From contig MQRK01242463.1 in the NCBI GenBank assembly GCA_001938485.1, forward strand, positions 1 to 55,863: DNA of 55,863 nt. The letters run 5' to 3'. The notes beneath the pieces are model-generated. The model did no database searches and was not told where the DNA came from. It saw only the letters and a list, made by a program, of their open reading frames with translations. How positions within the stretch are numbered: position 1 is the first letter of the stretch; every line of letters begins with the position of its first letter. The DNA comes from Girardia tigrina. Taxonomy: Eukaryota. This document shows, piece after piece, positions 936-39,507 of this stretch. Position numbers and translations under genes: made by a program.

Positions 936-1181
936 ATAATCCGATTGTATTTTATCCTGATCTTCATTTTTATATAAGAATGCATCACATTGAAATTAAC
1001 TGTCTTCTTGATCCCGATACAAAAGTATTAGATCTCATGATGTCGTGGTGGATGAATATGAACATATCCAAATCGCGTTTTATAACCGTTTACGACCATA
1101 AGATAATTATTTATAAATCCATTCTTCAAAGTTTTATCAATATTAGCTGCCAATTAGTATGGGATAAAAATGAGGAAGAAC
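936..1181 (+). CDS. IgSF gene exon: Ig-like domain 1 (DNPIVFYP...IEINC...MSW...INISCQL)
   Basis: Acceptor ttgcatttag ends at 935, donor c|gtagaa at 1182; 246 nt, phase 1-1; lies inside ORF 833..1216. Confidence 0.7.
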
Positions 1182-3027: not shown

Positions 3028-3076
<49 letters not shown>

Positions 3077-11986: not shown

Positions 11987-14900
11987 CTTTTAAAATCATT
12001 ATGTCGAAAATCATCAAAAACTAACATATCGCTCGCATCATGGTCCCGGCTGACGGAGCGTCTTCTTTTGGGTATTCGTCATAGATCTCGATATTCTCGT
12101 TTGATGCATCTGACTTCAGCGATCCGGATCGTCCACCATAGAATTCTCGTCTCCTGTCATCAGTTCTGTCCCCGATAGCTGCCACTGTTCTGTCCTGTCT
12201 CCGTCTCCTGTCGAACTGCTATCCATTTCCGAATATTCGTCATCTGTTCTAGCTGTGTAGTCTGTTTTCAAAACTGTTATCTCGATGTCGATATCTCTCT
12301 TGATCATTTTTCTGTCTCCTGTCGTAATCCTTTTGGTATCCATCATGTTGCATTTGTCGCCCGTATCTTTCCAGTATTCTTGTCTCAAATCGTCTTCTCT
12401 CCAAGTTCGTATAGCATCCGTCTTCTAAATGTCCGTTTAAGAGGCATCGTCTACATCAAAATGTCGTGCAATTCCTGCGAATGTGGCCCTGTTATCCACA
12501 TCAATGGCAGATTATTGATCTCCTTTTTACACAATTTCTGTTCAGGTGCCCTTCCTCACGACATGTCCAGCATTCTATTGTTATATTTGGGTATCTTTGT
12601 TCAGGTTTCACATTTATGTTAACTGTTGTTCTGTCAAATCGCCTTCCGTTATTCGTCACTGCCTCCTTGTACAATCGGAACACATTTATCTTCTCTATAT
12701 CAGCATTGATATTCTCCATTTGTTTAATCGTCTTTTGAATTTCTTCGACCAAAAAATTCGACTTCGACTTCGACCATATTCTGTTCCCTCATTTTTATTT
12801 CTTTCTTTGTATCCTTGTCATCAACGCAATGTATCAACAAATGAATTGTAATGACATTTCCTTCCCATTTGTGGCATAAGATTCGATCCGTCAATTCTTC
12901 TATTTTCTCGAAAAAATTTTCTGCTGAATCTTACTGATATTCAAGCGCCGCTGATATATCTTCTAATATATTACTCTGTTTTTTTAACGCTGCTCGGAGT
13001 TGTGCTTCATAACCGACAATAGATTCGTCCACCTTCTCGTAATCCTTGAGGAGCTCCCGATCCAGAAGGGTTTTTATAATATGTTCCCTCAATTTCTTCA
13101 AGGTTTGAGCGGCGTCAAAAGATCTATTGCATTCTTTAATATATTCTTCGATATTGTCATCTGTAAAAGCAACCTAAAGTTTAGTGATTGTTAACTTGAA
13201 ATTACTTTTACAATAGAATAAATAAATAAAAAAAAGACCAAACAATCAAAAAATGTTAACTATTCAACAATAACAGAAAGTATTAAAAAAATAATAATTA
13301 AAGTCGATCACAGTTAACAAAAAAACGAAATGAGGTCAGTGAGAGGACTGAATAAAAATGTTACTTCGAGATTTTGGTTGTAAATTTTAAGTGATCGTAA
13401 ACTTGAATTTGTTATGCGACAGTTATGACTAATAAAATAAGATCTGGGAATGTATGCTTCCTAAAATTAAACATTTGTAATGTTATTTTACCTGAAATTA
13501 ATTATAATAAGGTAGAAATAGCTTTTGGTTTACAATCAATAAAGAATGGAGTGATAATGATCCACGAATAATAGAGCTGAACAAACAAAAACAGCAATAA
13601 AGATCAAAATTTTGTTAGTTATCAAAATGAAAATACTAGATGTAGACATTTTAAAATAAATTAATATGTTTTAATTTATAAAAAATGTCAAGGGTTGTTC
13701 CGGATTAAGATTTTAAAAAAAAGAAATTTTTGAAATTATTTTTGTATAAAAGAAAAAAATATATGTATATAGATAAGAGTTTGTTTTTGTAAGAAAGTTT
13801 ATTTGTTTATCGAAAAAAATTGTTTTCTGGAAAATTTCAGAATGTTTTAATAATGTTTATTTAAATAATATTTTGCGTGACAACATTGCTTGTTTTGTTA
13901 TGTAAAAGAAAATAAATACTGTTTGCGTTTAAAAAATTTTTATATATATTATTGAAATTAAAAAAAAATATTCCATTGAATTTTAAAATAAAAAGTCAAA
14001 TGCTAAAAATAATCGAAACGAGTTCGTATCTCAACAAAATTTCTGTTCAAGAAGAAGGGAATCGCAGCAAATTAATCTGCTCAAAATGTAAGACGTTTTT
14101 CACCGTCCTCCGAATCGAATTCGAATCGCATCCTCTAAAATCACTCTCATTGACTTCAATCAACTCAAATGCATTTTTTTGCTACTCGAATTTCGATTTC
14201 CAAACACATCGAATCTTACTTAAACGAAAATTGCCGCTCGATGAACATTTGCAACTTGTTTAATGTCTTCATAGAAATGCACAAGCAAAAAGTGATCGTC
14301 ACAACAACAAATTCGTTTGTCCGATATGCTGCACTCAATTTACTGACGAATCTCAACTGATCGAGCACATCAAGTCAAATTTTATGAAGATTTACCACTG
14401 CACATTTAACAATAGTTACATGAAAACCACCCTCATCGATTTTATCATTAGTAAATCGGATATTATGGCAGGTTTTTGTGCCGGTCATGCTCAATTCACA
14501 GACTCACGAAAAGATAATTTGGCAAAAGACTGTTAAAGGGGGGTTCATTCCTGTGGGCCTGAACAAGCCGAGCTCAATCTCCGGAATTCTGATTTAATAA
14601 GGGTAAAATAATAACGGATTTGAATAACGTTATCGAGGAGCTTTGAATATTCAGGATAGAAGTTTTGAATCGGAAAATAACATTGGTCGAAAAATGATAC
14701 GAAGTTTAGAGCGACTAAAATCTTTTTTAAAAAGTGGGATTTTAAGAATTATATTGTTATAAGACGAAATTCCACACGAAAATATATTTGAGTAAAATAG
14801 CATAGATACACGCATGCATCTTAAATATAATAAAGAAATGAGAGTCGCCACAATTTAAAAGACTAATTGAATTCAAAACAATTCAGTAAGTAACTCGATC

Positions 14901-17900
14901 AGTATTTCATCATTTCTGCAAACAACGATTCGAAAGTTTTTTAAGCGGCCGTCGTACGCAGTTCTTAAACGTAACGGTTGGTTATTGGAAATGTATATTT
15001 TTATTAAATGTTATTTAAATTTTCCTGTTCCTAATTTCTTATATTTTGAAATAAAATAAGCTATAATAATGAAAATATACCCTTTGGCCCACGGAGATAT
15101 ACATATCATATATACATATGGCAGCTAACGCGTTAAATTAAACAAGTTAAATTTGAGTTTTGACTTAATGTTATATATCAATAAACAGCAACTGTCGAAA
15201 TGTCCTAAAATAATATAATATACAGTAAAACCTCTCTATAAGTAGTTATTTGTGACCGAGAAAACTACCTTTCAATAAGAAAAGTTGCTTATAGAGAAGG
15301 AAGGAATATAAATTAAATTAATAAATACAATAAAACCTCTCTATTAGGAGTTATTTTGGACCGAAATAATAAAAAACTTTATTCCTTATAGTGAATTACA
15401 TCTTATAAAGAGGGAACTTTCTAGAAAGGTTTTACTGTAAATATTATTTTCAAACTAAACATTATTTTTGTAGAGTACCAAATATGAAATTTTTTCTTTA
15501 TATAGGAGTTTCTATTTTTCAAATTATACCTGATTTGGATGTAGTATTGTGCTATGATGTAATTTGTTGTGATGTTACTGCAGTTGTGGAGGTTCAAATT
15601 ACCTTAATGGTTTATAATACATCAATTACAGGAATATACAATGTCTGCTATGTATTACCACCTGTGATTCGTAGTTACTTAGGGTTTGTATCATGTAATA
15701 TAACGTACAATACAATCGAAGAACATAAACATAAGCCAGTTGTTTATTTAAGTAAGTGTGGAATTTTCTTTTATTTTAGTTTTTTTCATTTATGCACAAT
15801 TGAAGCAAAATCTTGTTGTAAATTTTAAGAATTTTTGTTATAAAATATTTTTCGTCCTTGTGATCGTACTGCTTGTTACGATGTTGTTTCTGTTTATATA
15901 ATAACATGAATTTTACATCATTCATATCTGGGATCAGTATACCTTTGCCCAAGGGAGGACAAAATATTTTTATTGATAGACATGTTTAATACTTACTTAC
16001 TATCAGGGTGTTGTATCTCAGCAGATGCTTTTTCGGTTTCTTCACCAAGAATAGCTGACCACCAACAAATTCCCGGAGCACGTGCCCACACGATTGGTCC
16101 CATCTGTAGTTCCGTCGATATGTCATCACATTTCTCTGACTGAACTTCAAATAACTTGATGATTTTAAATTGTTCATCGGTGATTATCGTAATCTTTAAA
16201 CATTGAAACAATTTCACGGCCGAATTAAACAGTTCGACAAATTGATAAATAACATTCGCATTCAAATCGACATCGATCTCATCCATATTGCAGAAAATCG
16301 ATTTTTTGACAAAATGGCCGTCTTTAATATCGAAATGTACAATTACGGTTGGAGAGTCTCTTTTGATCTTCTCGATTTGGTTGACTACTTGATGAGCTCT
16401 ACTCAATTTCAAACTGCATATTTGCACGCCCATATCGATTCTGTTGCTGAAATTTATGACCTTTGGAGCCTGATTCTGCGTGTTATCATTAGAAACAGAT
16501 TGAACTGGTTTTTTATTATCTCTCGGTTTACTGGAATTATTATCTTTATCATCGTCACTTTTAAAATTAATATTTTTTATTTTAATCGGTCGATTTATGA
16601 AGTCGTTATCGTGACTGAAGTACACTTGTAATGAGTCTCGATTGAATACTCGACTCAAAACAGTCTAGTTAAAATCGTCGTGTTTCGCCCGATATTCACA
16701 TCGGGATTAAACTTTAAGACACTTTATTTTGTGGTCAAAGCTTTCAATTTGCCTACACGCTTTTTTTCGAAACAAAAACTGACTGTTTAAATTACTCACA
16801 TCAATTGTGTCTAAATCGAGCACAGTTATGTTTTTGAAGTGCCACATTACGAGATTTTTTAGCAATTCATATCCGATACCGCCCGCTCCAACGACCAAAA
16901 CATTACTTCTTTCAACAGCATTCATTGTAATTTTTTATTTTTTATAAACATTGTTTTTCAATTGTGATCATTTTTGATTAGCAATATTTTCATTTATTTA
17001 AATTTAAATGAGACAGATCGATTCATAAAGCTGCAATCATCACAAAACCATATGAACGTGATGATCATATACATTTATTTATATATATACTTATATATAT
17101 TAAATTATTTAATTCAATTAAATCTTATTTAATTTTTTATTTCTTTTTTATTTTAATTACTTATTTAATTATTTAATTTTATTAGTTTAATTATTTTTTT
17201 TATTTAAATTACAAATAAAGGGTTTAAGGCTATCGCAGCGCGACCACAGGATCCGCGTGAATATAATGCCTACTTTAGTTACAATTTAAAACGTAATGTA
17301 TGAATTAATGGTACATACAAATAGAAGGTATTCATGTTGATCCCACCGTTTCTTCGTTTTATTTTGGAAGAAATTAAACAAAACTACAAATTTATAGAAC
17401 AGGTTCAACGTTTTGTATATAAATGAAGATTGCAATAAATGGCATATAAATGTTTTTTAAACGTATAAATTGTCCAATAGGCCTTAAGAGACAGTATGAA
17501 AATAAATAGTAACATGAAAATTGTACTCACGTTGACATAATTAAACATTACACAATAACAATCACACAACAGTGTCTAGAAAAGTGAACAATTTTATAAA
17601 AATTGCTGAAAGTAACCACCAGCATGTTCCTGAAACAATGAGTTTTGGCGGATAAAAGAATGATACACTCTCCGTATTATGGCAACATCAGTAGCCTTTA
17701 AAAGGTTGGATAATCGAGCCTTCAACTCTACAATAGTAACAGGACAGGGTGCTGATGAAGATTGTTTCGTATTGACCCTCATAACCAAAAATCCATGACA
17801 GGCAAGTGCGGACTTCTTGGAGGCAATAGACCTGTACTTCCTGGGCCAGTCCTACGATTTGGCAATTCATGATTTAGATCCTGTCTAACAACATTAGAAA

Positions 17901-20900
17901 AATGCGATGGGTCGCCATCCTGTTGTTACGTAAGTCTCATGTATGGTCTTTCTTTAAATAATGGAAAACAATACCATAGAGAATTTTTAAGTAACTATCG
18001 TCATTCATTGTGGCATCGAAAATTTTAAAGTGCACTCTAAATCGAGGTAACACCATATCCCAACAAGTTATTGATGGAGATTTATGCGGTTTTTCTAAAA
18101 CTGCTAATGGATTTTCCTTACAATAAATAAATTGGTTGTGGGTATTAACACAACAGCGTCATCACTAAAAGCTATGTTAAACTCGAAATTAATGTAGAAG
18201 ACGCGGCGGTCGAATAGTTTGACGAGTGAGGATGGGAATCGTGGAATTTGGATTGTGATTGATATTGAAAATTTCTGTTGGTAAATTGTCCAACATTTAT
18301 ATCACAAGAAATGTGTTAAAATCGAAGAAACGAATATATAGGAATTGTGGATGAAAAGTGTGAGGAAGTTTGGTATGATGTGTTGTATGATTTGATTTGT
18401 TGTCTCGCCAAAAAATAATTGCCGAAGTAGTAATTTATCTTTGAAATAATTTATCAAGACAAATTAAATTTAACAATAGTTAAATTTAACTAAAATCTTA
18501 AAATAAAGATTAATGAAATATAAGATTAATGAAAGCTGGTTGAGACTACCGATTGAACATTGATTTTAGGGCAACGTGAGCTGGTAAACTTCCTCCGATA
18601 AAAGATGATGAATTTCTTAGTTCTTTATTATCAAATCTTAATAAACAGGGTCATATTTGTGATAATCTTGTAAAAGTTTTGCATCCAAGTGTTTCTCAAC
18701 CAGCTAAATTATATAGACTTCCAAAGGTACATAAAAATGAAATACCTTTAAGACCCGTTTTATAGATGATTAGAACGTCTCAATATATGGTAACGAAATA
18801 TCTAGATTCAAAATTAAAACCATTATTATCATCTGATTTTTTGTGTCACGATAGTTTTGAATTCGCTGATTTCATTTCTAATTATAAAGTACAGAATGAA
18901 GGTGAATTTATGGTTTCTTTCGACATCTCTAGTTTATTTACAAATGTTCATTTGGTTGAAACTTTGAATTTGTGTTGTGATCTTTGGAAAAATAATTAAT
19001 CAGAACATCATATTGTCGACGTGGTTGGGTTTTGTGAGTTATTAAGTTTTGCAACATCAAATGTTCATTTTCTTTTTAATAAAGAGTGGTATAAGCAAAC
19101 TGATGGGGTTGCTATGGCTTCACCGTTAGCACCAACGTTAGCTTCTGTTTTTCTTTCCAAGATTAAAAATAAAATTAAATTGTTTGATAGAAATCAACCT
19201 TTAGTATATAAAAGATATGTTGATGATATATTTCTAGTTTTTAAAAATCAGGCTGATGTACTTCCATTTTTAAATTTTATGAATTCTTTACATCCAAATG
19301 TTACCTTTACAGTTGAAAATAAATAGAATGGAGTCTTACCTTTTCTGGATCTTTTGGTCGAAATAAAATCTCGTAGTTACGAGACTGGAATTTATAGGAA
19401 GCAAACTGATACAGATTTATATACTTCACCGGACAGTTTTTTGTGAACTGAAGTATAAAAGAAACATGATTAAAAGCTTAATTTATCGCTCCTGATCGTT
19501 GTATTCCACTTTTGTTAAATCTGTAGAAAGTGTTAATAAACTAAGTTCCTTATTAAATCAGATGGTTATTCTAAATCTTTTCTGGAAAAATTAATAAAGG
19601 AAACAGTAGATAAAATACTTTTGAAAGATATTTCGAAAAATCAGAGTTTGGCTTCTCCTGATGGATATAAGAAAGAAATCGAATGATCGTTAGATATGAA
19701 TAATATGCCTAAATATTATTTAATTGTACCTTATTCTGAAGGATTTAAAAACTTTAAAAATGCATTGTTAAAAGCAACTAATAATGAATTAAATTTAAAA
19801 ATTATATCACGATCTCATAAAATTCAAAATATGTTCAGTAATAAATCTATTACACCTTTAACACTTTGTTCTGATATTGTCTATGAATATAAATGTAATG
19901 GGTGCGATGTCACATACATTGGAGAGACTGCCCGTCATCTTTGTAAACGAATTCAAGAACATGGTCGAAAAGAGAGTAAGAGTAATATTGCAGAACATAG
20001 GAAAAAATGTAAGTGTGATATTAATTTTGATAATTTCAAAATTCTGTGTGAGCATTTTGACAGTTATTGGGAGTGTCGTATGAAGCATTTTTAATTAGGT
20101 CTCATTGCCCTAAAATCAATGTTCAACCGGTAGTCTCAACCAGCTTATATTAATTAGTGACATGAAGATGACGGTTGATCCGTCGAAATATTTTATCTTT
20201 AATTATATTTTTTAATGGATGAGTTTTGTTTTCAGTAAAAAGTTATCATCCGGATTTCATTTTATGAATGAAATATTTGTTTAAATATTAGAGAATTCGG
20301 TAATTATTTTAAAATTCTCAGTCTATAAAAAGTGTTCCAGATTCCAATGCATAAGAAGATAACCGATTTTTATTGTATAAATGAATCGTTTCTGTCTGGA
20401 GTTTAGTCTTCTTTTAACAAAAAGAAAGGATCTACGGCCGACTAGCGTAGACAAGATAATTATTTAATTACTAGTAAATAACCCGTCATATGACGGGTAA
20501 AAATTTTTGAGAAAAGTTTAAATTATGACGCATGAAAAACAACAGTCTCCCTGTTAAATTTGGTATGTTATATTAGAAAAATAAATATAACATACAGTTT
20601 ATATTATACAGTTTATATTATTAAAATAAGTTAAAATAAATTATAAAATAATTAGAGAAACATGTTTACAAAAATAAATAAATTAATAATATTCTAAATG
20701 TAAATTCACAAAACCTTTTTTTATCATTATATCATTAAAAAACATGAATTTTAATTNNNNNNNNNNNNNNNNNNNNNNNNNNNNNNNNNNNNNNNNNNNN
20801 NNNNNNNNNNNNNNNNNNNNNNNNNNNNNNNNNNNNNNNNNNNNNNNNNNNNNNNNNNNNNNNNNNNNNNNNNNNNNNNNNNNNNNNNNNNNNNNNNNNN

Positions 20901-20925
20901 NNNNNNNNNNNNNNNNNNNNNNNNN

Positions 20926-20962
<37 letters not shown>

Positions 20963-23900
20963 AAACACTTTCTGTGAATTTTCATTCAAAATTAATGAAC
21001 AAGACGATTTTGAGTTTAAAAAAAATGTTATAACAATAGGCGATTTTAATTTAACTCGGAAAGACTGTTAACTGATGCTTGAAGAGAAAGTGATGTGGTT
21101 ATAAATATGAATCATATTAACAAAGTAAAGATTGATTCAATTTCGAAATTCCGAAACACCCAGATTAAAGTTTTAATTAATATTGTATACATTTTATATT
21201 TCAAATACGTTTTGATTAACTTTTTACTTAACAGGTTGAGTGTGATACGACCCACCAGTGGGTCGTTGCTGATTTCCATCTGCAGTGAAACGATCCACGG
21301 GCGGGTAGTTTATAAAAATAATACGGAATATTTAAAAGAACCCTCAAAGTTGGCATTATTGCCATTTTGAAATCTCACACTCGGCTGCGAACAGATCCAC
21401 TGGTGGATCGCATTCCACTCAACGTGTTAATCATTGTTTTATACGAGTTAGTCAAGTGATGGTATAAGGGAAAATTCTGGGTAGACAGTAATAAATATTA
21501 CATTTTATATATTTGAACTGTTATCTTAGTTAGAGTTCCGGTAAAATATAGTAATACATTTTAGTAAGAGGAATATGTTAAAAAAATTTAAATAATTTTG
21601 AAAAACCATAAAAATTTTCACTAATATAAATTTAGTATTTAAAGGAATTACTTATAATATACCAGAATTTCCCGTAAGTTGTTCAACTAAATCAATTTAT
21701 TGAATAGAGAAAATGATATTTTAAACTGATTTAAAAAGAAAAAACGAAGTAAAAAAGAAACTTCAAGTGCATAACAAAAATACTACTATTACCCTGTATA
21801 GGAGAAAAGGTTTAGTTCTTTTACCTGTTAACGATTCAGATTCAGGAATCACTTGAAGCTTATTGTGTATTGAATGACTATTTGAATTGAGCTTTGTTCT
21901 TAGTTGTGTTTCATTAAAATAAATTATTTTAATGAATAGTTTGTGTTCACTTTACATATACTTATTGTTGGAAGAACCTTTTTGAAATTGACAGTCAGAT
22001 AATTGATAAAGTGCAATAAAGATACAATGCGTTTCATTTAACAACAGCAAAATGTTATAACGTGCACATTTAATTACAGTAAAATCAATCATAATTTTGC
22101 TTTATGATTGCTTTAATGTACTGTTATAAAATATTGCAAAAGATTTATTGAATGTTATTCAATTTTATGATATAATTTTATGTACTGTCGATATGTAAAA
22201 AGGTGAATAAAAAGAAGCCAGTTATCTAAATATCTTTTATAACTAAATAAGTGATAGATAAAAAGGCATTCATTAATAGTACTATTTTTTAGTATTTATT
22301 AAATACTATTTAATAACAAAATACAATAACGTTTTCAGACGATCCGGAAAACTTATATATTTTCCCAAGTACTCCCAAATTAGGAAGCCAAATAATATGT
22401 TTTCCCTATGAAACGATTTTCGATTACAAAATCTTCAAAGATATCAAATTAGATTTTGAATGGAGTGTTCTTCAAAGTCCTAAACTGGATCCAGAATTGT
22501 TCGGGGATACAATTAATTTAACGTTTTACTCAACTGAAGAAAATGTTTTAATTTTATTAGAGGAAATTTCAATATTTGGGATATACATCTTACGGTGCCT
22601 TTGTCGAATAACATTAAGGAATTTAACATTTGAGTTGGATAAAAATGCTACTTACTTCATCACAGGTTTTTAATTATATTTTGTATTCCTAAATGAACTA
22701 AGTACATAATTCTTAAAGATTTTCGAGATGATTTTTCCTCGCTTCAACTCAGACGCCGCGGATCTTTATCATTGTTTAACCTAATTTTAGTCTTATTTAT
22801 TATTAGTCATTTAATAATTTGTCTTACTATTGCATTTAACCAGACTATGGAACGTAATATGAAAACATGTGTGGAAAAATATTTGTTCCAAACGGGATTT
22901 TATAAATCATTTAAAGATAAAACGGTAATTATATGTTCTTATATATAAAATTTAATTAATAAAGTTTAATTGTATGAGAGATACATATACTCTTTATAGC
23001 ACCTATAAGACGTACAAATAAAAATGGTACGTCTACAATAAAATGAGAATAAGAAACAGCATCGAAATTATAAAATTACATATAAACTATTAAAAACATT
23101 GAAGGAACAACAAGATAAAATAACAATAAATTCTTATTATCTTAAGACTATTAATTGGATAGTTTAACATGTTGTTTCTAATAAAATAAATAAATAAAAG
23201 TTAAGGTAGTTCTCCTGAGAAACTTATGCCAATCCAAAGCATTTGGTTAACACAAAAATAACTAGTAAATCAAAACAAAATGATATCCTTTCTTTATTCT
23301 AGCAGAACTCTATTTGGTCAAGATAATTTTTTGTTATCTTTTGTAGAAGGGAAAATTACAATTGCATTTATTAATATCATTAATATTTATTAATTCATTA
23401 ATACTTTTTTATCTTTACTTTGCGTAATATAAACTACTTATAATTTATAAGTAGATCTTTTGCAATTAATTTTGTTCAGGAACTCCGATGTGACCGTTTT
23501 TTCCAAATTCTGAGACCTTAAAAAAGTTTTTTTTGATCAAATTATCACATAATCATTTATTGTCATCAAAAATGAGTAAAAGTGCAAAGTTTGAAGAAAT
23601 TTTATTGAGTAACAAGGGTACGCCGACTTTACCGCGGACGACTTTACCGCGGCGACTTTACCGCGGGCGACTTTACCGCGGAAAATTTACAACAAAATTG
23701 TCAAAAAGTAAACAATGTCATCTAAAATATATATAAAAAATTTTAATTATGTAATGATAAAACAAGGAATCATAATAATTTGAAAACATAAATGGATAGA
23801 AAATTTCAGATGGACATGACATTTAATTATTCTTTTTAATAAAAAAAATAAACAAACAACATACGAAAAATTAGTAAATTCCTAATTTAAAAAAAATCAA

Positions 23901-25055
23901 ATAACCCAAAAAATGTGATGTGTAAATTGAAGAAAGATACAAAAACATTAAACTGTTTCTTTTATTTTTTTCCAAATTGATTGGTTCAGATGAAAAAAAC
24001 AGCCTTTAACAGTAGCATTACAAAATACAGTGGAAACAGTGTTCATTGCTCCTTTTTCAAAATCCATCATAATAGTTTGTAGATTTAAATTTGGTTGTTC
24101 TCTTAAAAGCTCTTCAAACATACGAGTGTAATTTAATTGAGTTTTATTGGTCATCAATGCATAAACAAGAGGGAATACTTTGTTTGATTTTAAAGCATGT
24201 ATAGTATAAACTTGGTAAAATAATCGAGGGACGACAGAGAATGATCCATCCATAAACCAATTTTCACAAGAAGCCATCAGATTTATGTTTGCAGTTGTAC
24301 TGAAGAGCATTATCCGGTTGGCATCATTAGATCCAGAATCGAGTATCAAAAAAGATTCATTTCTAGTTGTAAACNNNNNNNNNNNNNNNNNNNNNNNNNN
24401 NNNNNNNNGATTTGGATTTGGCCAAGGAGCATTCTCTTGTTTTCTTTTTCGTTGAATTGTACGTTGACTAGAGTGATAACTTGGAAGAAATATTGCAACG
24501 TCAAGTGGAATCCCAGTCTTAGATTTCTGAATAATTTGCCTCGGGACCTCTACTGTCTGCGATGCACGAGTTGCAACCACCTGAGCAATGTGCCTAGCGA
24601 TACTTTACCTGGCTCAGGAGCATGATTATGCTCAGAAGGGTGACCTAAAATGTTGTTGTTTGAAGTACGAATTTTTCCTTTACATTTATGTTGTTCATAA
24701 GCAACACAGCGCCAGAATTTTCCATCTAGAGATTTTAAATCATAATCAAAGCGATAAGAATAACCTGCATACGCAACAATCGGATTTCCAGATTTTGAAG
24801 TAAAGAATTGAAGATTCATGCTGAAAAAACAGTGGGAGAAAAATTTTAAGAAATTTATAATATTTTAAGATATATTTTTAAACGTAAGTCGATAATTTTA
24901 TTATAATTATTATGTTTTAATAATTCGGTAATTATTCGGTAATAATGGCAAAAAATATCTTAATTAAAAATCTGAAAAAATCCGCTGTAAAGTCACCCGC
25001 GGTAAAGTCGCCTCACCAGTAACAAGCTTTCAAAAATAGGTTTCTAAATTTCCGT

Positions 25056-25102
<47 letters not shown>

Positions 25103-25670
25103 AAAAATCATTTCTAAATCTTACAAAATTCAAAGTATGTTCAGCAATAAATCTCGTACTCCTTTGAGTTCATGTTCCAATCTCATGCATCAATTTTCGT
25201 GTAATGGGTGCAACGCCACATACATTGGAGAGACATTTCGTCATGTCTGTAAACGGATTCAGGAGCATGGACGATATTTAATAAATATAATACTTAACCA
25301 ATCAGACTGCATTGATAAAATGAATGACATATTAGGTACAGATAAAGTCAAATATTATTTTGTTTGCTATCGTAGACTATTTGATAACTTTTTATTCAAG
25401 TTTTGTTAATTTTACTTTTAATCTTTGTAGAAACTTGATTTGCCATTGAAAACTTTTTATTTTCGGGATAATTACATGAAACGAATCGATTATTTCAACT
25501 GTTACAGAATGATAGAAATGACCATTAATAGAAGTAAATCCAAACAAAGTTTAAGTTCTAAGCCAACCGAATTCAAATTTGGTCTAATCAAATTAAGAGA
25601 GAAAACATATAGTCCGAAATATAAAGTAAGACTTAGAAAAGTTTTTAATTTTAACTTAAATTTAATCGTT

Positions 25671-25705
<35 letters not shown>

Positions 25706-28500
25706 TCCACCCTCGTTTCCGGGACATTCTTTATGGTGGGGCACCTTGATTTGTGGGGAAATTTTGGTTTTTGGGGCAAGTTTTAAGAATCACACTATTA
25801 CATATTATTTATATTGTGTTTTTATTCCAAAAGTACAATTATGTTTCGTTTTTTGGGGCATATTTTTTAACCTAAAAATGATATTAAATCTTGGTCTGAA
25901 ATAATTATCAAAATTTCCCCAAATTTAAAATATTACAAGCTTTTTTTTAAAAAATAATGGATAAACTTTTATTATTCTATTAATTAACTGTTTATTTTTT
26001 TAACTTGTGCTTTCATTAAACATTATGCCAAATAACAAAAGTTCAAATCGTTATTAATTGAATATTATTACAAAAATATTTCTAACTTGGTGATAAGAAA
26101 TTTATTCAAAAAGTTAATTTTAAAGTAACTAAAGACAAAGAGGGCCGAATTTTATTATCGGATTGTTGTTGGAAGTGTGTTGTAATTTATAAAGAAAAAA
26201 CATTCAGTTTGGAAACACAAGACAAAAAACACAACTTCCATAACACAACGATTGGATATGGGTTTGATAAAGGCATTCAAGGATCATTACAATAATTCTC
26301 TTGTTGATTTTTTGGCAACTGAAGAACCGCTGGAGGATACCGGAACAGCTGAAATTTGTGAAAAAGTTCGTTATGATAAACTAAAGCTGGGATGGGAAAA
26401 ACTTAAAGAATTGGAAAATTTCATTGAATAAAAAAAAGAATACATCAAAAAGAATACATCAAGTTTAGAATGCAATTTAATAATTTTTTAAAGAAGGAAT
26501 TTAAATTTGAGAAAACAATAACTGATTATTTTAAAAAATTGGAATAAATTTTATTTAGTTTTTCGATGTTTTTTAATTTTTTGGGTGTTTTTTGGTTTTG
26601 GGGGCAAAATTTGATATTTTTTGCCCAAAACCGAGGGTGGATTGTATATATATATATATATATATATNNNNNNNNNNNNNNNNNNNNNNNNNNNNNNNNN
26701 NNNNNNNNNNNNNNNNNATATATATTATAAAAAAATAATTAAAAATCCATTCAAATTAGAAAATTAAGAGAATGGTGAAACTTTGCTTTAGAATAAAATA
26801 AAACACTTTATTGAGGAAAACATTCGTGTATCATGTTAAAATAAATATTTTTTTACATATTTTATAGTACCTATCATATTTCATGGTGACTCACCTTGAT
26901 TTTGATCACTTTTGAGTCGTGTTAATAACAATTATGACTGTTGTTTTTTTAATATTTTTAGATCGCCAATTTAGAGCTTTGAATATTGAACGAAGAATTT
27001 TAATACAAAAGCACTTGCTATTGAGATTGTAGCGCTTAAGGTGAAGGTACGGAATCAGAGAAAATTGCAAAGAATTATTTAAGCATTCAGCCAAAAAACC
27101 GTGTTTTGTTGATAAGAAAAGTATATTTCTAAAAAGGAATAGTTATGATTCCAAATTTATTCATATCCTATATCATAAATATATGACATATTAGGTGCAA
27201 CGAACTGTGGATGATGATGCAACGTCTTAAGGAGTTGAAATCTGATACGCCTGCACTAAACTCTTTAAATTATGCTTGCAAGGGTCTGTAACAAATATTT
27301 GGGATAACCACATCTTGCTGATGAAGATACACTGTCAGTGTTGATATATCTGCGAATGGTGTCCACCACTGCTACTTTCGGATGTCCTACTAACCTTATC
27401 GTTTTTCACTTGGATTTTCCTCTAATAAAAATCCCACAATGACGCCCCTTTCCAAATCATTCAGGTCGTAATGCTTCATATACAGGGAAGTTACATAATA
27501 TGCATATAATATATCACAATTCGATTGATTATTAATAGCAGAACAATGAAAAAAGACTTAATAAGAGGATAAATATCACTAGTTGCTGAGCATCTAGATA
27601 GGTGAATTTTTAACACATAATCTCCTTGTGTTATATTAGAAAATATCATAATTAAGTGAGCTCCAGATGACATTCTGTTCCCGAAAATGAAGTGCGTTAC
27701 TAGTGGTGTATGTAATGTATTCTTATTGCAACGCCGTGTAAAATGAATAATTATAAACATTTTATTACAAATGATACTGGCTTACATCTTCATGATAAAA
27801 TATATCAGGCAGAGTGAAATAGGAAATAAAAGTATTCATTATTATTAAATTCATTGGTAGTCGTGGTTTATGAAGAATAAATTTTAACGGAAATTAATAG
27901 AAATTTTGTACAAATGGTCAAGAAAAATACATAAATACCAATTTAACCCCTTTACCGTGGAAAAAAATTTTTTTTGGAAACTGTGTAATTGTTTTCTTTC
28001 ATTATTTGATTTGTTATGTTGTCCTGACAAAATAAAACATCATTGTGAGTGAAAATGAATTGCCATGTAGAATTTATGAAGTAAAGTAATTATGAATTTT
28101 TTCATATGACCAGTTAACTCGTGACACACGGTAAAGGAGTTAAAACGATGATAATTAGTGAAAGCTCTGTTGAGAATTGTCCCGAAGACAATTCAAATTG
28201 TGTTATAAATAAAAGTCTTGAAAAATATATTTGTACTCTTAATAATATATATATATGAATTAGTATTTTTCTTTTTATTTATAGTTGCAGTTATATTTTC
28301 AGAATATGAAGGTGTCATCTAGCTCTGGAAATGTCAATTTAATTGATAATATTTTTGAAGGTTCTGATGATGAAGTAGCGAAAAAGTATAGAATGACAAA
28401 AAAGAGTATCACAATTCAAATTAAGCCGCCTCTATCAGACAAAACTGATTTGACATCTTCGACTAGTACTAAAGTTTCCGAAAATCTACATATATTATAA
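936..28500 (+). CDS. Multi-exon gene (5' end not resolved): single-pass membrane protein with four divergent Ig-like domains; exons 936-1181, 1229-1258, 5732-6037, 15506-15751, 22339-22665, 22719-22924, 25431-25625, 28285-28500
   Basis: All junctions are GT-AG with matching phases (1-1 for the Ig exons, then 0). The spliced frame has no stop for about 589 codons. Domains show Ig-like C...W...C spacing (domain 3 lacks the Trp) and 10 N-x-S/T sequons, then a hydrophobic TM segment [24 protein letters not shown] and a cytoplasmic tail. Confidence 0.8.
1229..1258 (+). CDS. IgSF gene 30-nt micro-exon ([10 protein letters not shown]), probable last strand of Ig domain 1
   Basis: Follows a 47-nt intron (1182-1228) ending tattttag; donor acag|gtatat; phase 1-1. 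Confidence 0.55.
1297..2423 (-). mobile_element. Decayed pogo/Tigger-type DNA transposon
   Basis: Imperfect TIRs (tagtcaatcctgttcaatatgaac / reverse of gttcatatggaacaggtttaacga) in TA context; minus-strand DDE_1 remnants [22 protein letters not shown] and C-terminal QLKITDF. Confidence 0.75.
2432..3031 (-). mobile_element. Internally deleted Tc1-like element (600 bp)
   Basis: About 32-bp TIRs CAGTCAGGTGCAAAAGTTTGTCAACGCTTGTT with TA flanks; paired-like HTH N-terminus with GRPR motif (ORF 2630..2863); no catalytic domain. Confidence 0.85.
3032..3090. repeat. (TA)n/(TG)n microsatellite next to an assembly gap
   Basis: Visible directly; similar (TA)n tracts at ~11840-11983, 20928-20958, 25058-25098, 25674-25702 and 26645-26667. 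Confidence 0.95.
3365..4790 (+). mobile_element. 5'-truncated RLE non-LTR retrotransposon (NeSL/Utopia-like), decayed
   Basis: RT C-terminal region (ORF 3378..4142), CCHC-type remnant [10 protein letters not shown]...RNARHNAVL, restriction-like endonuclease motifs KHVDLQI, IKCP and IIVGALGSW; stops and frameshifts. Confidence 0.8.
5732..6037 (+). CDS. IgSF gene exon: Ig-like domain 2 (LLNESISC...IEW...PGSYNITC)
   Basis: Acceptor ttttcgttgtag, donor acag|gtaaat; 306 nt, phase 1-1; lies inside ORF 5716..6051. Confidence 0.8.
6375..6585 (+). mobile_element. Possible small non-autonomous Helitron
   Basis: 5' ctatctattaataaaagc resembles Helitron 5' ends; 3' short GC hairpin ccgatcccgg followed by ccagt (CTAG variant). 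Degenerate. Confidence 0.3.
6927..13170 (-). mobile_element. Decayed Ty3/Gypsy LTR retrotransposon internal region (gag-PR-RT-RH-IN)
   Basis: Gag CCHC knuckle [14 protein letters not shown], protease FLDTGA, RT MPFG and YLDD, RNase H FTLRTDHK, integrase IIDQFSK and IHVDCG. A polypurine tract aaaaagggggga is followed by TGTGAG (3' LTR start at 6926). Many stops and frameshifts; no 5' LTR seen. Confidence 0.93.
8290..9945 (-). mobile_element. Full-length Tc1 (DD34E) element with ~240-bp TIRs, nested in the Gypsy RNase H region
   Basis: Ends CAGTAGGAGACAAATTATTAC on both sides with TA duplication; transposase 9573->8588 (frameshifted) with FSDES and QDGAPCH-34-E (SPDLNPIE); removing it restores Gypsy LLAIYYFCQHF. 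Confidence 0.95.
14000..14410 (+). pseudogene. Degenerate multi-C2H2 zinc-finger gene fragment
   Basis: [10 protein letters not shown]...FESH and [22 protein letters not shown] plus two more degraded fingers; stop at 14261-14263 and frameshifts. Confidence 0.65.
14423..14515 (+). pseudogene. EEF2: Elongation factor 2 (eEF2) G-domain fragment, in frame with the ZnF fragment
   Basis: [31 protein letters not shown] aligns by eye to eEF2 KSTLTDSLVxKAGIIAxxRAGxxRFTDTRKD. Confidence 0.7.
15223..15437. mobile_element. Tigger/pogo-type MITE
   Basis: TIR CAGTAAAACCT ... AGGTTTTACTG with TA flanks; a second left-end copy inside at ~15328. Confidence 0.75.
15506..15751 (+). CDS. IgSF gene exon: Ig-like domain 3 (DVICCDVT...[10 protein letters not shown])
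   Basis: Acceptor tttttctttatatag, donor tta a|gtaagt; 246 nt, phase 1-1; lies inside ORF 15484..15828. Confidence 0.72.
16001..16677 (-). pseudogene. Chimeric open frame downstream of the UBA2 fragment: unassigned domain plus degenerate PWWP N-terminus
   Basis: ORF 15993..16658 has no visible UBA2 similarity; it ends [21 protein letters not shown] (PWWP-like) followed by a GTAAGT donor at 16000. Confidence 0.55.
16678..16925 (-). pseudogene. UBA2: SUMO-activating enzyme subunit 2 (UBA2/SAE2) N-terminal fragment
   Basis: [18 protein letters not shown]...[20 protein letters not shown], continuing after a frameshift as [22 protein letters not shown] and AKHD; truncated, with substitutions in conserved positions. 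Confidence 0.85.
17560..18290 (-). mobile_element. Decayed DD41D (rosa/Visitor-type) Tc1/mariner transposase
   Basis: FSDDA, then QQDG...[11 protein letters not shown] with exactly 41 residues between the 2nd and 3rd Asp; stops and frameshifts; boundaries approximate. Confidence 0.75.
18590..20200 (+). mobile_element. Penelope-like element (RT + GIY-YIG endonuclease), decayed
   Basis: [41 protein letters not shown]; endonuclease [25 protein letters not shown]; several stops. Confidence 0.93.
20158..20197 (+). ncRNA. Degenerate minimal hammerhead-ribozyme-like motif at the PLE 3' end
   Basis: (C>A)TGAAGA-T-GACGG-ttgat-CCGTC-GAAA-TAT; perfect stem II; located where PLE hammerheads are known to occur. 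Confidence 0.6.
20471..20756 (-). mobile_element. Helitron 3' terminus and adjacent non-autonomous element (5' end in or near the gap)
   Basis: Minus strand reads ACCCGTCA-TA-TGACGGGT hairpin, then tattta, CTAG|T: the canonical Helitron 3' end. Confidence 0.75.
21232..21426. mobile_element. piggyBac-type MITE (195 bp)
   Basis: TTAA on both flanks; ~30-bp imperfect TIRs CA(G/C)GTTGAGTG...CGA(C/T)CCACCAGTGG. Confidence 0.8.
22339..22665 (+). CDS. IgSF gene exon: Ig-like domain 4 (GSQIIC...DFEW...GIYILRC)
   Basis: Acceptor gttttcag, donor acag|gttttt; 327 nt open, phase 1-1; absent from the ORF track. Confidence 0.82.
22719..22924 (+). CDS. IgSF gene exon: transmembrane segment and juxtamembrane region
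   Basis: Follows a 53-nt intron (22666-22718) with a ctaa branch-like site; encodes a 24-aa hydrophobic stretch; donor acg|gtaatt, phase 0. Confidence 0.8.
23617..25017 (-). mobile_element. Mutator-like element (MULE) with FLYWCH + MULE transposase, frameshifted and 3'-deleted
   Basis: 9-bp TSD AGTAACAAG (23608-23616 and 25018-25026); TIRs GGT..G.CGACTTTACCGCGG with tandem subrepeats; FLYWCH-like YSY...FWRC....C.G...H.H; WFMDGSF, IMMDFE and GCFFH. Confidence 0.93.
25098..25346 (+). mobile_element. Penelope-like fragment: GIY-YIG piece joined to a pre-RT piece
   Basis: [24 protein letters not shown] is closely similar to 19830-19965; it is followed by [16 protein letters not shown], which resembles the PLE pre-RT motif. 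Confidence 0.75.
25431..25625 (+). CDS. IgSF gene exon: cytoplasmic tail part 1
   Basis: Acceptor atctttgtag, donor aaa|gtaaga; 195 nt, phase 0-0; in frame with ORF 25440..25673. Confidence 0.65.
25703..26644 (+). mobile_element. Non-autonomous pogo/Tigger-type element inserted in (TA)n
   Basis: TIR CA(G/A)TCCACCCTCG.TT; remnant of a transposase C-terminus (KTITDYFKK). Confidence 0.75.
27200..27480 (-). mobile_element. Tc1 transposase N-terminal remnant
   Basis: [16 protein letters not shown]...[21 protein letters not shown] across a frameshift. Confidence 0.5.
27947..28139. mobile_element. piggyBac-type MITE (193 bp)
   Basis: TTAA|CCCCTTTACCGTG ... CACGGTAAAGGAG|TTAA. Confidence 0.8.
28285..28500 (+). 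CDS. IgSF gene terminal exon: Ser/Thr/Lys-rich cytoplasmic tail
   Basis: Polypyrimidine tract plus tag at 28284, phase 0, ends TAA at 28500; equals ORF 28285..28500. Confidence 0.6.
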   Translation: MQLYFQNMKVSSSSGNVNLIDNIFEGSDDEVAKKYRMTKKSITIQIKPPLSDKTDLTSSTSTKVSENLHIL

Positions 28501-30116
28501 TTAATTATGTTTGTTTTTACTGTGACGATTAATGTTGACTGAACTTTTTATGGACTCTATGATATTTTAATGATATAAAGATTTATTTTAAATTTATTAA
28601 CATGAGAAGCACCAGATGATTTTGATATGCATTTAAAATCATCAATTTAAAGAAGTTAATTAACGGAAAATTCAAAGTAATATTCAAAGTAAATTCACAA
28701 TTTATCCTATTAAGTCTCGTCAGATATCATAATGCGTTGGGGACATATAGTTATTTTTTGTAATACATTCGATCGGTTGGCTATTTTTTCTATATACATT
28801 TCTATGATTTCCCACCAAGAGAAATAAAAGTTGACGGATATTAAATTTACAAACCAAAGTTTGAGGCTTGCAGAACCAACTGTCCTTGTAAAAGTGTATT
28901 TATATTTCCATAATGTTCATCGGATATGAGCCCCTTGAGTTACAGTATTTAATTTTGAATTTTTCTATTGAAATCAACAGAATTAAATGTTGAAAATTTT
29001 AAAAAGTATGTTTTGTAGGATTTTTATTGAAAATGTTTACAGAATATTTGTTTAAAAAAATAAAGAACAAAAATTGACTGCTTTTTGTTAAAAAAAACTT
29101 GTTAAATAATGAAAAAGTGAGCATAAGAATTTTTATTTGGTATATACATATACATTTTGACGCGTATATTAGAATATTACCCTTTTCGTTGATCCATGAT
29201 TGCAGTGACCAAAAAATTTAATTATGTCAATATTTACAATTAATTACCTCGCCATAAATTAATCCACCAAACTCTTTGATTCAATTTTCAAAATCTTGCA
29301 AATTTATTAAATAATTTTCACATAAAACTAAAAATTTATTTTAAAACTTATTTAAAATTGTTTCATAACTTCTATTAAAATATATAAATTGTTATGGCAG
29401 TAAAAATATTTTTATTTGTAAATAAATATTTAATATTTAATGGTTTTCTTATCATTTTTAATTTTAAGATATTTAATAGATACATTAGAAAGATATTTAA
29501 ATTTTTTATGAATTTCTTTTATTATATCATTTTTAATTTTAAAATATTTAATAAGCATATTAACATTAAAATATTTTACCTTTTAAATTAAAAAAATAAT
29601 AAATTATTCTGGCGAGATGCAAATTTAAATTAAGTCTTCATAGTAAGTAGAGCGGAGAATTGCTTATTTGACCGAACATTTTTGCTAGTTTCCGGAAAAT
29701 ATAAATAAAAAATATAATTAACTTAATAAACTAAATAATTAATTAAATTAAAAGTAAATAATTAAATAAAGTTAAAAATAAACAAATTAAAAAAAATAAA
29801 TAAATTAAATTAAATAAATAATAAATAAATAAGTCGATGGTGAATTCACCAACAGAAAAAGTGTCACTTCGTTCACAGTCGATATTATTATCATTATCCA
29901 TTGTTAGAGAAGAAAGAAACAAATCGATTGTTAATTAAATTGTGGTGAGCCTCATTGTTATTTATCTAATGGAAAAGGATTTTCTCTGCATGTAAGTGTG
30001 TTTGTGTGTTGTATGAATGAATTGTCTGCATGCATGTGTGTTAAAGTCTGAAATGTAAATAATGATTGGTATGATATGTGAATTTGATTGGATGTGTGTG
30101 TAAAGAAATTTTTAAA

Positions 30117-30780
30117 GTGAGTCAATCACAAAAAAAAGTGTGTGAAGTTTAAATCAGTTTAAATCAATTTCAAAAACGGTGATTGTTGTTCAATAAAGTC
30201 TTCAAATAATTTTTCGTATATTTATTATCATGAAGACATGTGTAACATTGTCGAAAGCTTATGAGCAATATGAAAAATTTCCTCTCAAAAAAGATGAGGA
30301 AATAGTGTACATCTATGTCATGAAATTCCTGACGATGCTTTCTGAAGTTAAAAAGTTATTTAAAAGCGATAGAAAATACATTAACGTGATGTGCAATTCC
30401 GAGAAAGTCAATCAGGCATTTGAGAAAGTAGAAAAGTTAAAAGATAGTTTACAAGCGCGATATGAGCTCGATAAACAAAGAAAAATAAAAATGAAAAAGG
30501 AGCAGTGAAAGACTTCAATAATGTTGTGAAGGAATTCGTTAACGTGAAAGAATTCCACAAATGTATCAAACAGAATGAGAATGTATTGATTATTGATTCG
30601 CGATCGGAATCAGAATTTGCCGCGTGTCACATTTCTCACATACGAATTCTTAATAGCCCGCTGATTCGCTGAGTGTTTTAGAAGATGAATCGACAAACAT
30701 TTTTTCTTCTCCCAAAATATCGTGGAGACACGGCTTCCTGTCCAGTAAGGATGTCGATTTTCTAAAGCTTATTTTTTTGT
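30117..30780 (+). pseudogene. USP8: USP8-like N-terminal fragment (USP8 dimerisation/MIT-like + rhodanese domain), disrupted
   Basis: KKDEEIVYIYVMKFL...EKLKDSLQARYE matches the USP8 N-terminus; after a frameshift, VLIIDSRSESEFAACHI matches the rhodanese domain; no catalytic domain. Confidence 0.75.
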
Positions 30781-31000
30781 AATATTTGATTAATGAGAAT
30801 TTTTTTCAATTTCAGATATATCTTTGAAAAGACGAATGACAAATTTTATTAAAGTCAAGGGTAGCGCATTTCAAATACATTTTAAATGACAATAAATATA
30901 ATTGTCCAATGAATTACTAACTCTTTTATTCACTTGTAAATAAATGCAAAAAATGATGATTGTATATTCAATTATATGAAGTCATTCTGAACTAACGGTC

Positions 31001-31041
31001 TACACTGACTGTGACGATTGATCCGTCAAAATATATTGTCA
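31001..31041 (+). ncRNA. Second, orphan copy of the hammerhead-like motif (core mutated)
   Basis: CTGActg-T-GACGa-ttgat-CCGTC-aAAA-TATATT-GTCA, clearly homologous to 20158-20197. Confidence 0.5.
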
Positions 31042-31473
31042 TCTACAAAAACAATTTTATTTATTTATTTTAAAAAATTTTACTAATCGAAACAGAAAAA
31101 CTGTGAGATGTTGAGCAGTATCATTTTTAATTGAACGTTTAATACTTTTATTGCTGATCGCATACTATTGTGAGATGTGATGTGATCAAATGTTGGATTA
31201 TCCCGTATTATTGTATAATAGAACTTATGCAAACAAGTGTTATCCTTTTGGCAATTCTTAGGCTCTTAAAAAAGTTGTTTTTCCGATTAACTGTTACAAG
31301 TCAGACCTAACAAAAAGCGTACTAAAGTATTTGAATATCCGTTTACATGTGTTTATTCTCTTATTTACATTCAATAATGTGAATTTCATATAAAAGATAA
31401 CCCATAAGTAAGTAAAAAATATTTTCTTTAAAATATATTATGTCAAATTTGTGATCGAATTTACGAAATTAAT

Positions 31474-31655
31474 TTAAAAAATATAAACTTATCAAATCAT
31501 TATTTTAATTGTGTTCGAATAATTAATCACTGTGGATATAAAAAATACCAATTTCCATCTGGATGGAAGAATTACCATTCTAAGTCCAGCATACTCAGAT
31601 CAACATACAGCATCCATACATTAACACATCAATACAACTTAAAATATTCCTCACA
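31474..31655 (+). repeat. Unclassified interspersed repeat, copy A
   Basis: About 180 bp align by eye with 47040-47225 (minus); shorter copies at 34330-34451 (+), 51400-51492 (+), 18358-18420 (-) and 37395-37432 (+). Confidence 0.8.
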
Positions 31656-31899
31656 ATAATAATAATTTTTTAAATAATAAATAATTACGTATAAAAAATT
31701 GAAACAGAAACTTTCAAAGTCAAAAATTTAACTCATCCGTCATACATGACAAATTCTTTGATAGTATTTAAATATTTGAAAACATTTTGTTATTACTAAA
31801 CCATTTTCAATTTATCGACGTTTAATTTCAATTTATTAATATAGTACAGTATGCCCGATTAGTACGTATAATATTAAGGCAATCATACCAGAGTTTTGT

Positions 31900-38988: not shown

Positions 38989-39507
38989 ATGAGTATTGAA
39001 TTGGAAACATTTTACGATATTCTCGGAGTAACTTCCGGCTGCTCGGGAACTGAGATTCGAAAACAATTTTTAATAAAATCACGACAACTTCATCCCGACA
39101 AAGCCCTACACTCAAACTCAGAATCTTTTATCAAGTTGAAGGAAGCATATGACTGCTTGAAAAATGAAAATTCGAGAAAATTGTATGATGAATTGATTAA
39201 TATTAAATTTATTGAAAAGGAAAGAGAATTAAAAAAGAAAAATAAGAAGATAATTGAGGAGGAAACTAAACCGAAAGTCAACTTACAAAAAGAAAATAAT
39301 AAATATAAAGTTAATTTTTCTGACGATTTAGAAGAAATGGAAGAGATAAAAATCCAATTGAAAAAATTGGATTTGAAATTAAAGACGATGGAAATAGAAA
39401 CTGAGCGCCTAAAGCAAACTGTGGCCGACCGAATAGCCGATCATAAATCAAATCCGCACGTTAAATTTATTAAAGAAGAAATGAGGAAGATGTTTCTGAA
39501 TCGCTGA
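38989..39507 (+). CDS. J-domain (DnaJ/Hsp40 class C) protein with C-terminal coiled coil, 172 aa, possibly DNAJC17-related
   Basis: FYDILGV...QLHPDK...LKEAYDCL....SRKLYD; intact ORF; possible 48-nt 5'UTR intron 38937-38984; AATAAA about 30 nt after the stop. Confidence 0.85.
   Translation: MSIELETFYDILGVTSGCSGTEIRKQFLIKSRQLHPDKALHSNSESFIKLKEAYDCLKNENSRKLYDELINIKFIEKERELKKKNKKIIEEETKPKVNLQKENNKYKVNFSDDLEEMEEIKIQLKKLDLKLKTMEIETERLKQTVADRIADHKSNPHVKFIKEEMRKMFLNR

Follow-up and report, generated by a model that had tools for sequence, protein, structure and literature searches.

Three decayed host-gene fragments in a Girardia tigrina contig sit in leftover retrotransposon long terminal repeats, two of them assigned to BEL/Pao and one a probable case

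The stretch of DNA analysed here, called the window throughout, is the 55,863-nt contig MQRK01242463.1 (contig C242463 of assembly G000) from the 1.43-Gb, AT-rich genome of Girardia tigrina. It holds three decayed fragments of host genes, referred to as cassettes 1, 2 and 3. A preliminary description of the window had placed such fragments here, and translation and Pfam searches confirmed all three, with matches to a C2H2 finger at 14267 (+) (E = 6.7e-6), a ThiF domain at 16925 (-) (E = 1.7e-18) and a USP8_dimer domain at 30197 (+) (E = 1.5e-12). These scraps are leftover long terminal repeats (LTRs) of retrotransposons. Cassettes 2 and 3 are solo LTRs whose carriers are now identified as two BEL/Pao families, here named c2 and c3; cassette 1 is a probable solo LTR of an older third family outside both (Table 1).

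Table 1. Coordinates of the cassettes, their parts and the bystander elements in the window (TSD, target-site duplication)
Feature	Position	Strand	Basis and remarks
Cassette 1, old solo-LTR-like element, 904 nt	13696..14599	+	TGTT...AATA (AACA in relatives); exact 5-bp TSD AGGGT/AGGGT
Cassette 1 cargo, 5' ~460 nt of a 978-aa C2H2 zinc-finger open reading frame (G000:C215530)	13982..14440	+	74% DNA identity, junctions, frame
Cassette 2, solo LTR of BEL/Pao family c2, 1,238 nt	16009..17246	-	TG...CA; TSD 4/5 match (TCCTG/CCCTG)
Further cassette 2 cargo: coding segment of no assigned origin, UBA2 C-terminal remnant and PWWP fragment	16039..16673	-	218-codon open frame up to the LTR end
UBA2 (SUMO E1 subunit) exons 1-3, spliced, frameshift-broken	16674..16926	-	Pfam, homologues, host-gene alignment
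Fixed 5' frame of c2 LTR: GC patch and AATAAA-rich tract	17060..17246	-	Likely U3/R
Cassette 3, solo LTR of BEL/Pao family c3, 1,097 nt	29648..30744	+	TA (for TG)...CA; exact 5-bp TSD GTAAG/GTAAG
Fixed 5' frame of c3 LTR: GC patch and (AAAT)n tract with 9 AATAAA	29648..29830	+	Found in 64-69 of the 69 complete LTRs
USP8 fragment: N-terminal MIT/dimer domain and rhodanese start	30226..30670	+	Pfam; broken by frameshifts and stops
Older SNARE (SEC22-like) cargo remnant, then fixed ~22-nt LTR end	30671..30744	+	Terminal peptides compared between cargo types
Decayed Penelope-like element with inverted terminal repeats, bystander	18533..20148	+	Class by eye from reverse transcriptase and GIY-YIG-like motifs
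Helitron-like 3' end (hairpin and CTAG), bystander	20468..20503	-	3.2 kb from cassette 2
Degenerate Helitron-like 3' end, bystander	31737..31765	+	1 kb past cassette 3 TSD

DNA searches of the animal's own genome for shared ends, the check proposed in the preliminary description, showed that all three cassettes exist in many copies, as units bounded by TG...CA and flanked by a 5-bp TSD. The searches returned 1,745 candidates for cassette 2, 2,842 for cassette 3 and 112 for cassette 1, and 40 were scored for each. Exact copies of the 18-nt 3' ends number 946 (c3) and 1,035 (c2) in the genome, against 0 for reversed controls. Among solo copies, taken as those with both ends present and neither a primer-site nor a purine flank, a 5-bp TSD with at most one mismatch surrounds 44 of 45 c3 and all 22 c2 copies, compared with 4-5% in shuffled pairs; exact repeats of 4, 6 or 7 bp numbered at most one. 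The GC patch and (AAAT)n tract previously seen upstream of two cassettes are real and represent the LTR 5' end. After low-complexity masking the three cassettes have no mutual DNA similarity, and there is therefore no single carrier. The earlier proposal of a capture and shuffling system thus stands in part: the units are mobile and single families gather pieces of many housekeeping and chromatin genes, but no carrier is common to all three cassettes. If spacing were random, a single 56-kb window would hold two of the ~1,981 exact c2 and c3 ends with P = 0.003, a value that we do not read as meaningful since the window was picked from many.

Cassette 2 is an internally deleted variant of c2 LTRs that reach 2.8 kb. 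The best homologues of its ThiF domain are the SUMO E1 subunit UBA2, and in the host UBA2 gene (G000:C246788) the matching exons, 95, 91 and 94% identical to the window copy, are separated by two GT..AG introns, both precisely missing from the cassette. The cargo starts within the coding region, at about codon 17 if the upstream host ATG is read correctly, and leaves the host mRNA 8 nt short of where exon 3 ends. In the longest c2 LTRs, UBA2 N-terminal, unknown, UBA2 C-terminal, PWWP and UBA1 pieces are joined together. A genome search with PF10585 gave 55 matches, which represent many UBA1-type E1 gene copies, several of them broken.

The USP8 piece of cassette 3 begins at position 32-33 of the 114-position domain model, which longer variants span from 2 to 112, and its rhodanese match is weak. 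The SNARE cargo behind it we take to be SEC22 from matches to the Longin and Synaptobrevin domains. Host USP8 exons matching the window copy were not found in the own-genome searches, which located only the next exon (G000:C231246); a variant sister to the window copy lacks the intron that precedes this exon. The USP8_dimer profile has 87 matches in the genome, nearly all of them LTR copies where checked. Searches for homologues of the USP8 cargo and of the Gag part gave none at E<=0.01, which is weak evidence. Elsewhere, L076:4756-5892 (+) holds an intronless 379-codon open reading frame (ORF) with USP8_dimer and JAB domains (AMSH-like) beside a Gypsy-type reverse transcriptase and integrase, a possible internal capture by another element.

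All three cassettes had been described as starting near a host 5' end, intron-free and truncated at the 3' end. The start is as described for cassette 1, whose cargo begins 18 nt before the host ATG, but cassettes 2 and 3 begin inside a coding region or domain. Intron absence is borne out for cassette 2, where UBA2 exons 1-3 are joined exactly; for USP8 it is visible only through the sister variant, and the parent of cassette 1 is intronless in this part. Cassette 2 is more than truncated, being a chimera that also holds the PWWP piece.

The c2 and c3 LTR units also occur on either side of internal regions with a primer-binding site and a polypurine tract; some copies are followed 3' by a common primer-site-like sequence, and others are preceded 5' by a common purine tract. 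The order in full elements is LTR, primer site, leader, ubiquitin ending in GG, Gag, protease, RNase H, integrase, purine tract and LTR, and the domains found are ubiquitin, DUF1759 (Gag), CCCH fingers, DUF1758 (protease), Peptidase_A17 (E = 7e-41) and, after RNase H, an integrase (rve). The DUF1759, DUF1758, Peptidase_A17 and integrase content places these elements in BEL/Pao; c3 has all four domains and c2 has Gag and protease, homologous to those of c3, with several matches below curated cut-offs. A piece of Hsp90 precedes ubiquitin in the c3 internal region. The two families are 50% identical in a tail ORF and 32-35% in Gag and protease, and their LTRs have no DNA similarity; judged by these proteins, c2 and c3 are sister BEL/Pao lineages. 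In the full element L118 the two LTRs are 98-99% identical, cargo included, and the TSD is exact. In L116 the LTR pair has 478 nt in common at 96%; in L128 the similarity within the pair is no more than 87-89% in parts, and in L131 deletion has cut the 3' LTR down to 61 nt. Many c2 and c3 elements, among them L118, L072, L129 and L131, have a protease followed directly by a lysine-rich tail ORF common to them and lack reverse transcriptase and integrase; the tail ORF has no Pfam match. A search of representative proteins with ubiquitin plus Gag was swamped by polyubiquitins and is uninformative on such fusions elsewhere. Contigs aligned to L118 (less its first 400 nt and 3' LTR) covered 28-30 of 30 bins; the RNA status of the runs is a guess and no inference on expression is drawn. 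Contigs resembling host mRNAs match the cargo and Hsp90 pieces of L118, and contigs are silent on start, strand and level. A search for RNA data holding cassette 3 listed none.

The LTRs of c2 and c3 consist of short fixed ends around a swappable middle of host-gene pieces. The fixed part in each family amounts to ~170-210 nt on the 5' side and 20-25 nt on the 3' side. Across 69 complete c3 LTRs the first 160 nt are common to 64-69 and the last 25 nt to 67-69, while any position from 210 to 1010 of the window copy is common to only 7-27; c2 LTRs follow the same pattern. In the 200 nt before the LTR end, sampled by that end alone, 90 c3 copies fall into 16 types (the USP8 type accounting for 5 of the 90) and 61 c2 copies into 29. 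By Pfam there are 24 host-gene cargo types in total. Those of c3 are USP8, longin/SNARE, 14-3-3, kinase, Sec1, ankyrin, Usp, LSm and ARMET; those of c2 are two E1 enzymes, PWWP, anticodon-binding, SH3, actin-like, prenyltransferase, symplekin, USP9X/24, WDR3, RNA polymerase N, cullin, HAT1, tubulin and DJ-1. The names SEC22, ARP6, LSM12, DHDDS, Sly1/SCFD1, ZCWPW and RPB10 are presumed from Pfam domains. Before the cargo counts 311 of 697 ORF representatives (short singletons) were dropped, and the Pfam scan took in every one of the 168 sense representatives selected but, of the 218 antisense ones, 128; with 90 left unscanned, antisense cargo is under-counted. Three reverse-transcriptase pieces were excluded from the host types, and duplicate labels (ARP6/actin and three SEC22 labels) were merged. 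Cargo is layered in c3 LTRs, where LSm and USP8 pieces rest on a 14-3-3 remnant. One element, L130 (LTR end 2311), carries a piece of its own Gag as in-frame LTR cargo. Antisense cargo comprises ARMET and DJ-1 (L164:619-1155, L248:1229-1489), and the opposite strand of L164 keeps two 90-codon open stretches.

Cargo orientation and frame are strongly biased. Twenty-two of the 24 host types are sense (p = 2e-5), and 18 of these 22 lie in frame 0, the frame that carries on across the LTR end (p = 4e-6; scoring two ties as misses gives 16 of 22, p = 2e-4). Frame 0 is open for 60 or more codons at 60 of 110 c3 ends (2 and 6 for the other frames) and at 34 of 69 c2 ends (6 and 2), and is the longest open frame in 12 of 16 c3 types (one tie) and 23 of 29 c2 types, although types share tail remnants and are not fully independent. 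From the LTR end it runs through the primer site and leader into ubiquitin-GG-Gag. In L135 and L121, ORFs of 638 and 407 codons extend from the LTR cargo through the primer site into ubiquitin-Gag, and the GG after ubiquitin is kept in 18 of 21 copies. Two c3 cargo types (5 LTRs) start at one common ATG context. We also compared cargo variants shared between copies with private ones, leaving cassette 1 out of the totals. The nonsynonymous-to-synonymous ratio (N/S) is 2.64 among shared and 2.94 among private variants (p = 0.45), and amino-acid changes are likewise neutral in the UBA2 cargo alone; stops are rarer among shared variants (8/394 versus 53/991, p = 0.0055). The open frame, and not the protein sequence of the cargo, therefore appears to be under selection.

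The reading that we consider probable is that the cassettes are solo LTRs, and that two BEL/Pao families carry spliced host cargo, mostly in the frame of ubiquitin-Gag, that was captured by template switching and is tolerated through removal by deubiquitinases. Transcription would start near the AATAAA tract, so that both the RNA and ORF1 would have the long rest of the LTR (U5) at their 5' end. In the LTR models presented in PMC3601003 AATAAA precedes U5; BEL/Pao is not among the elements modelled there. During minus-strand strong-stop synthesis, reverse transcriptase would start at the primer site, copy at least 20 nt of the LTR end, jump to a co-packaged host mRNA and return to R, so that only the ends would be fixed and new cargo would be layered on old remnants. 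With cargo out of frame, stops or upstream ORFs would precede Gag and such cargo would spread less, which may be the cause of the observed frame bias, while in-frame cargo would be a disposable N-terminal extension that host deubiquitinases would cut off Gag. Cleavage after GG is established for ubiquitin fusions, and the ubiquitin insertion in pestiviruses acts as a cleavage signal. Recombination between LTRs, a known process, would leave solo LTRs that then decay, as in the window.

Several observations weigh against this account. Only 5 of 10 c2 and 1 of 11 c3 copies keep an unbroken path between the LTR end and ubiquitin; the c3 breaks lie at copy-specific places, as decay predicts, yet 7 of 11 finish in one common shifted frame. 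Methionines occur downstream of the cargo (in c2 in the leader and directly after GG, in c3 before the Hsp90 piece), from which Gag might be made without cargo. Frame 0 is not the majority frame for four sense types (prenyltransferase, UBA2 N-terminus, RNA polymerase N and tubulin), and two types are antisense. Among shared variants, frameshifting indels show no significant deficit (22/35 versus 81/104, p = 0.12), and homoplasy, duplicated haplotypes and host copies may contribute to the shared class. For cassette 1, the own-genome searches found neither an internal region (a partner with primer-binding site and Gag) nor variable cargo within the family.

An RNA origin is indicated by introns missing relative to the UBA2, Sec1-family and USP8 host genes, and the junctions bear on how that RNA was captured. 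With the same LTR carrier, capture might have proceeded by splicing (exon trapping or trans-splicing), in which case exon phase could bias the frame. The Sec1-family cargo, which ends at a host exon end, the GT..AG pair at 29993-30117 within the c3 LTR and the c3 cargos behind one common ATG context would fit such a route. However, the UBA2 cargo both starts and ends inside exons, the longer USP8 variant exits inside a host exon, the zinc-finger cargo ends within a single long exon, and cargo also includes antisense pieces and a piece of an element's own Gag. As the few junctions viewed lie mostly inside exons, with one at an exon end, template switching is favoured over pure splicing, and we judge the splicing route unlikely. 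At three cargo 3' junctions (window 16674, L111 and L357) the points of switching fall 0-45 nt short of the end of a host exon, reminiscent of the near-junction switching described in PMC5131818, albeit in few cases and with short exons.

Cargo might also be kept for its benefit to the element, as protein decoys (SUMO E1, ubiquitin, endosomal sorting complex) against silencing or as RNA camouflage that makes silencing by PIWI-interacting RNAs costly. Several cargos do come from ubiquitin/SUMO and chromatin genes (UBA2, UBA1, USP8, USP9X/24, cullin, HAT1, PWWP), and such conflict between transposable elements and genes is reported for maize in the available text of 10.1101/777037. Against this, N/S is neutral among shared variants, which leaves the protein-decoy role unsupported, cargo is replaced repeatedly and many cargos are unconnected with silencing; a selected benefit has little probability in our estimate. 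Far less probable still is that one Helitron-, Penelope- or Pack-TIR-type (terminal inverted repeat) family carries all three cassettes, or that they are independent retrocopies. The Helitron-like and Penelope ends noted earlier are present, but as bystanders 1.0-3.2 kb away and outside the cassettes' own TSDs; no TC...hairpin-CTRR ends enclose the cargo. TG..CA ends and a 5-bp TSD are present separately for every cassette, and none has poly(A) or long inverted repeats; the window's 25 longest inverted repeats include no terminal inverted repeats of a cassette, and the cassette ends match by 2-4 nt only. Elsewhere c2 and c3 are joined to BEL/Pao internal regions, and for both this alternative is refuted.

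If capture into the ubiquitin-Gag frame is correct, the ubiquitin joint before Gag and the long translated LTR would make a retrotransposon tolerant of arbitrary host coding sequence, which would account for a genome full of multi-copy, open-frame mosaics of housekeeping genes. It would also constitute a filter favouring in-frame domain shuffling without selection on the host, and a direct animal test bed for small-RNA conflict between transposable elements and genes. A bolder proposal, which we put a little short of even, is that the families act as an in-frame exon-shuffling library: the LTR would give promoter and start codon, the slot would sample the host transcriptome, translation of ubiquitin-Gag would select open chimeras and cleavage would free Gag and a chimeric polypeptide, seeding thousands of promoter-equipped, open-frame mosaics as solo LTRs. 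Solo LTRs with cargo are prone to mis-annotation as gene duplicates.

LTR-mediated retroposition in animals, as described by Tan et al. 2016 (PMC5131818), resembles c2 and c3 in its partial intron-free mRNAs, multi-gene chimeras, template switching and amplification, and one case there involves the Pao element BATUMI. According to the accessible part of that account, such retrocopies replace part of the internal ORFs between the LTRs and have few copies; this layout is not that of c2 and c3, in which cargo lies within each LTR, is present in both LTRs and in hundreds of solo LTRs, is serially replaced and is in the Gag frame. Cassandra, Helenus and Ajax are similar in having host-derived sequence in LTRs and solo LTRs with 5-bp TSDs, but are presented in the text available (PMC10886601) as non-coding elements with one fixed 5S rRNA or tRNA piece. 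Unlike such terminal-repeat retrotransposons in miniature, with a small-RNA gene in the LTR of a non-coding element, c2 and c3 have variable protein-coding mRNA cargo and Gag-Pol, a distinction drawn from the coding content and not from Rfam or tRNA scans. Pack-MULEs (Mutator-like elements), Helitrons, Sirevirus capture and maize Bs1, in the available portions of 10.1101/777037 and PMC13317346, also shuffle several host fragments, with possible small-RNA cross-talk. In the same sources only 3% of Sireviruses carry fragments, without orientation bias, whereas most c2 and c3 LTR copies hold cargo that is strongly biased in orientation, towards sense, and in frame. Cytopathic pestiviruses likewise have captured host ubiquitin directly before a viral protein (as outlined in PMC2850149); these are sporadic insertions in an RNA virus, in contrast to a fusion fixed in two sister families. 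The giant Gypsy Burro elements of planarians similarly have host-like ubiquitin-pathway domains in their polyprotein, but the domains are fixed in an internal ORF, and the accessible text of PMC6431247 mentions no swappable LTR cargo. The combination of variable in-frame LTR cargo with ubiquitin-Gag was not found in the accessible portions of the literature searched, Repbase and subscription papers aside.

Cassette 1 has the same build as the c2 and c3 LTRs but is older. Its full-length relatives are 70-78% identical (40 of 112 candidates scored), an exact 5-bp TSD occurs in 5 of 9 copies with both ends located, and in the window one end letter is changed from TG...CA. The cargo is in frame with the element end and has two stops. 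One LTR start behind a purine tract is 89% like cassette 1, over 27 nt only. Two more LTR-like starts, TGTTCCGGATT in L368 and L370 (about 1510), stand behind a purine tract like that of c2 and c3 and are possible relatives of cassette 1. Atlas searches gave weak zinc-finger leads at most and otherwise nothing.

Other features of the window include an intronless 172-codon ORF at 38989-39507 (+) with a DnaJ domain (E = 5e-16), a small gene or retrocopy without a match to c2 or c3 LTRs, and a GC-rich exon at 53708-54418 (-) with a tubulin-tyrosine-ligase domain, probably part of a real host gene. Relics of DNA transposons with inverted ends (Tc1/mariner- and MULE-like) lie at 46-3342, 8287-9948, 23621-25020 and 25702-26646.

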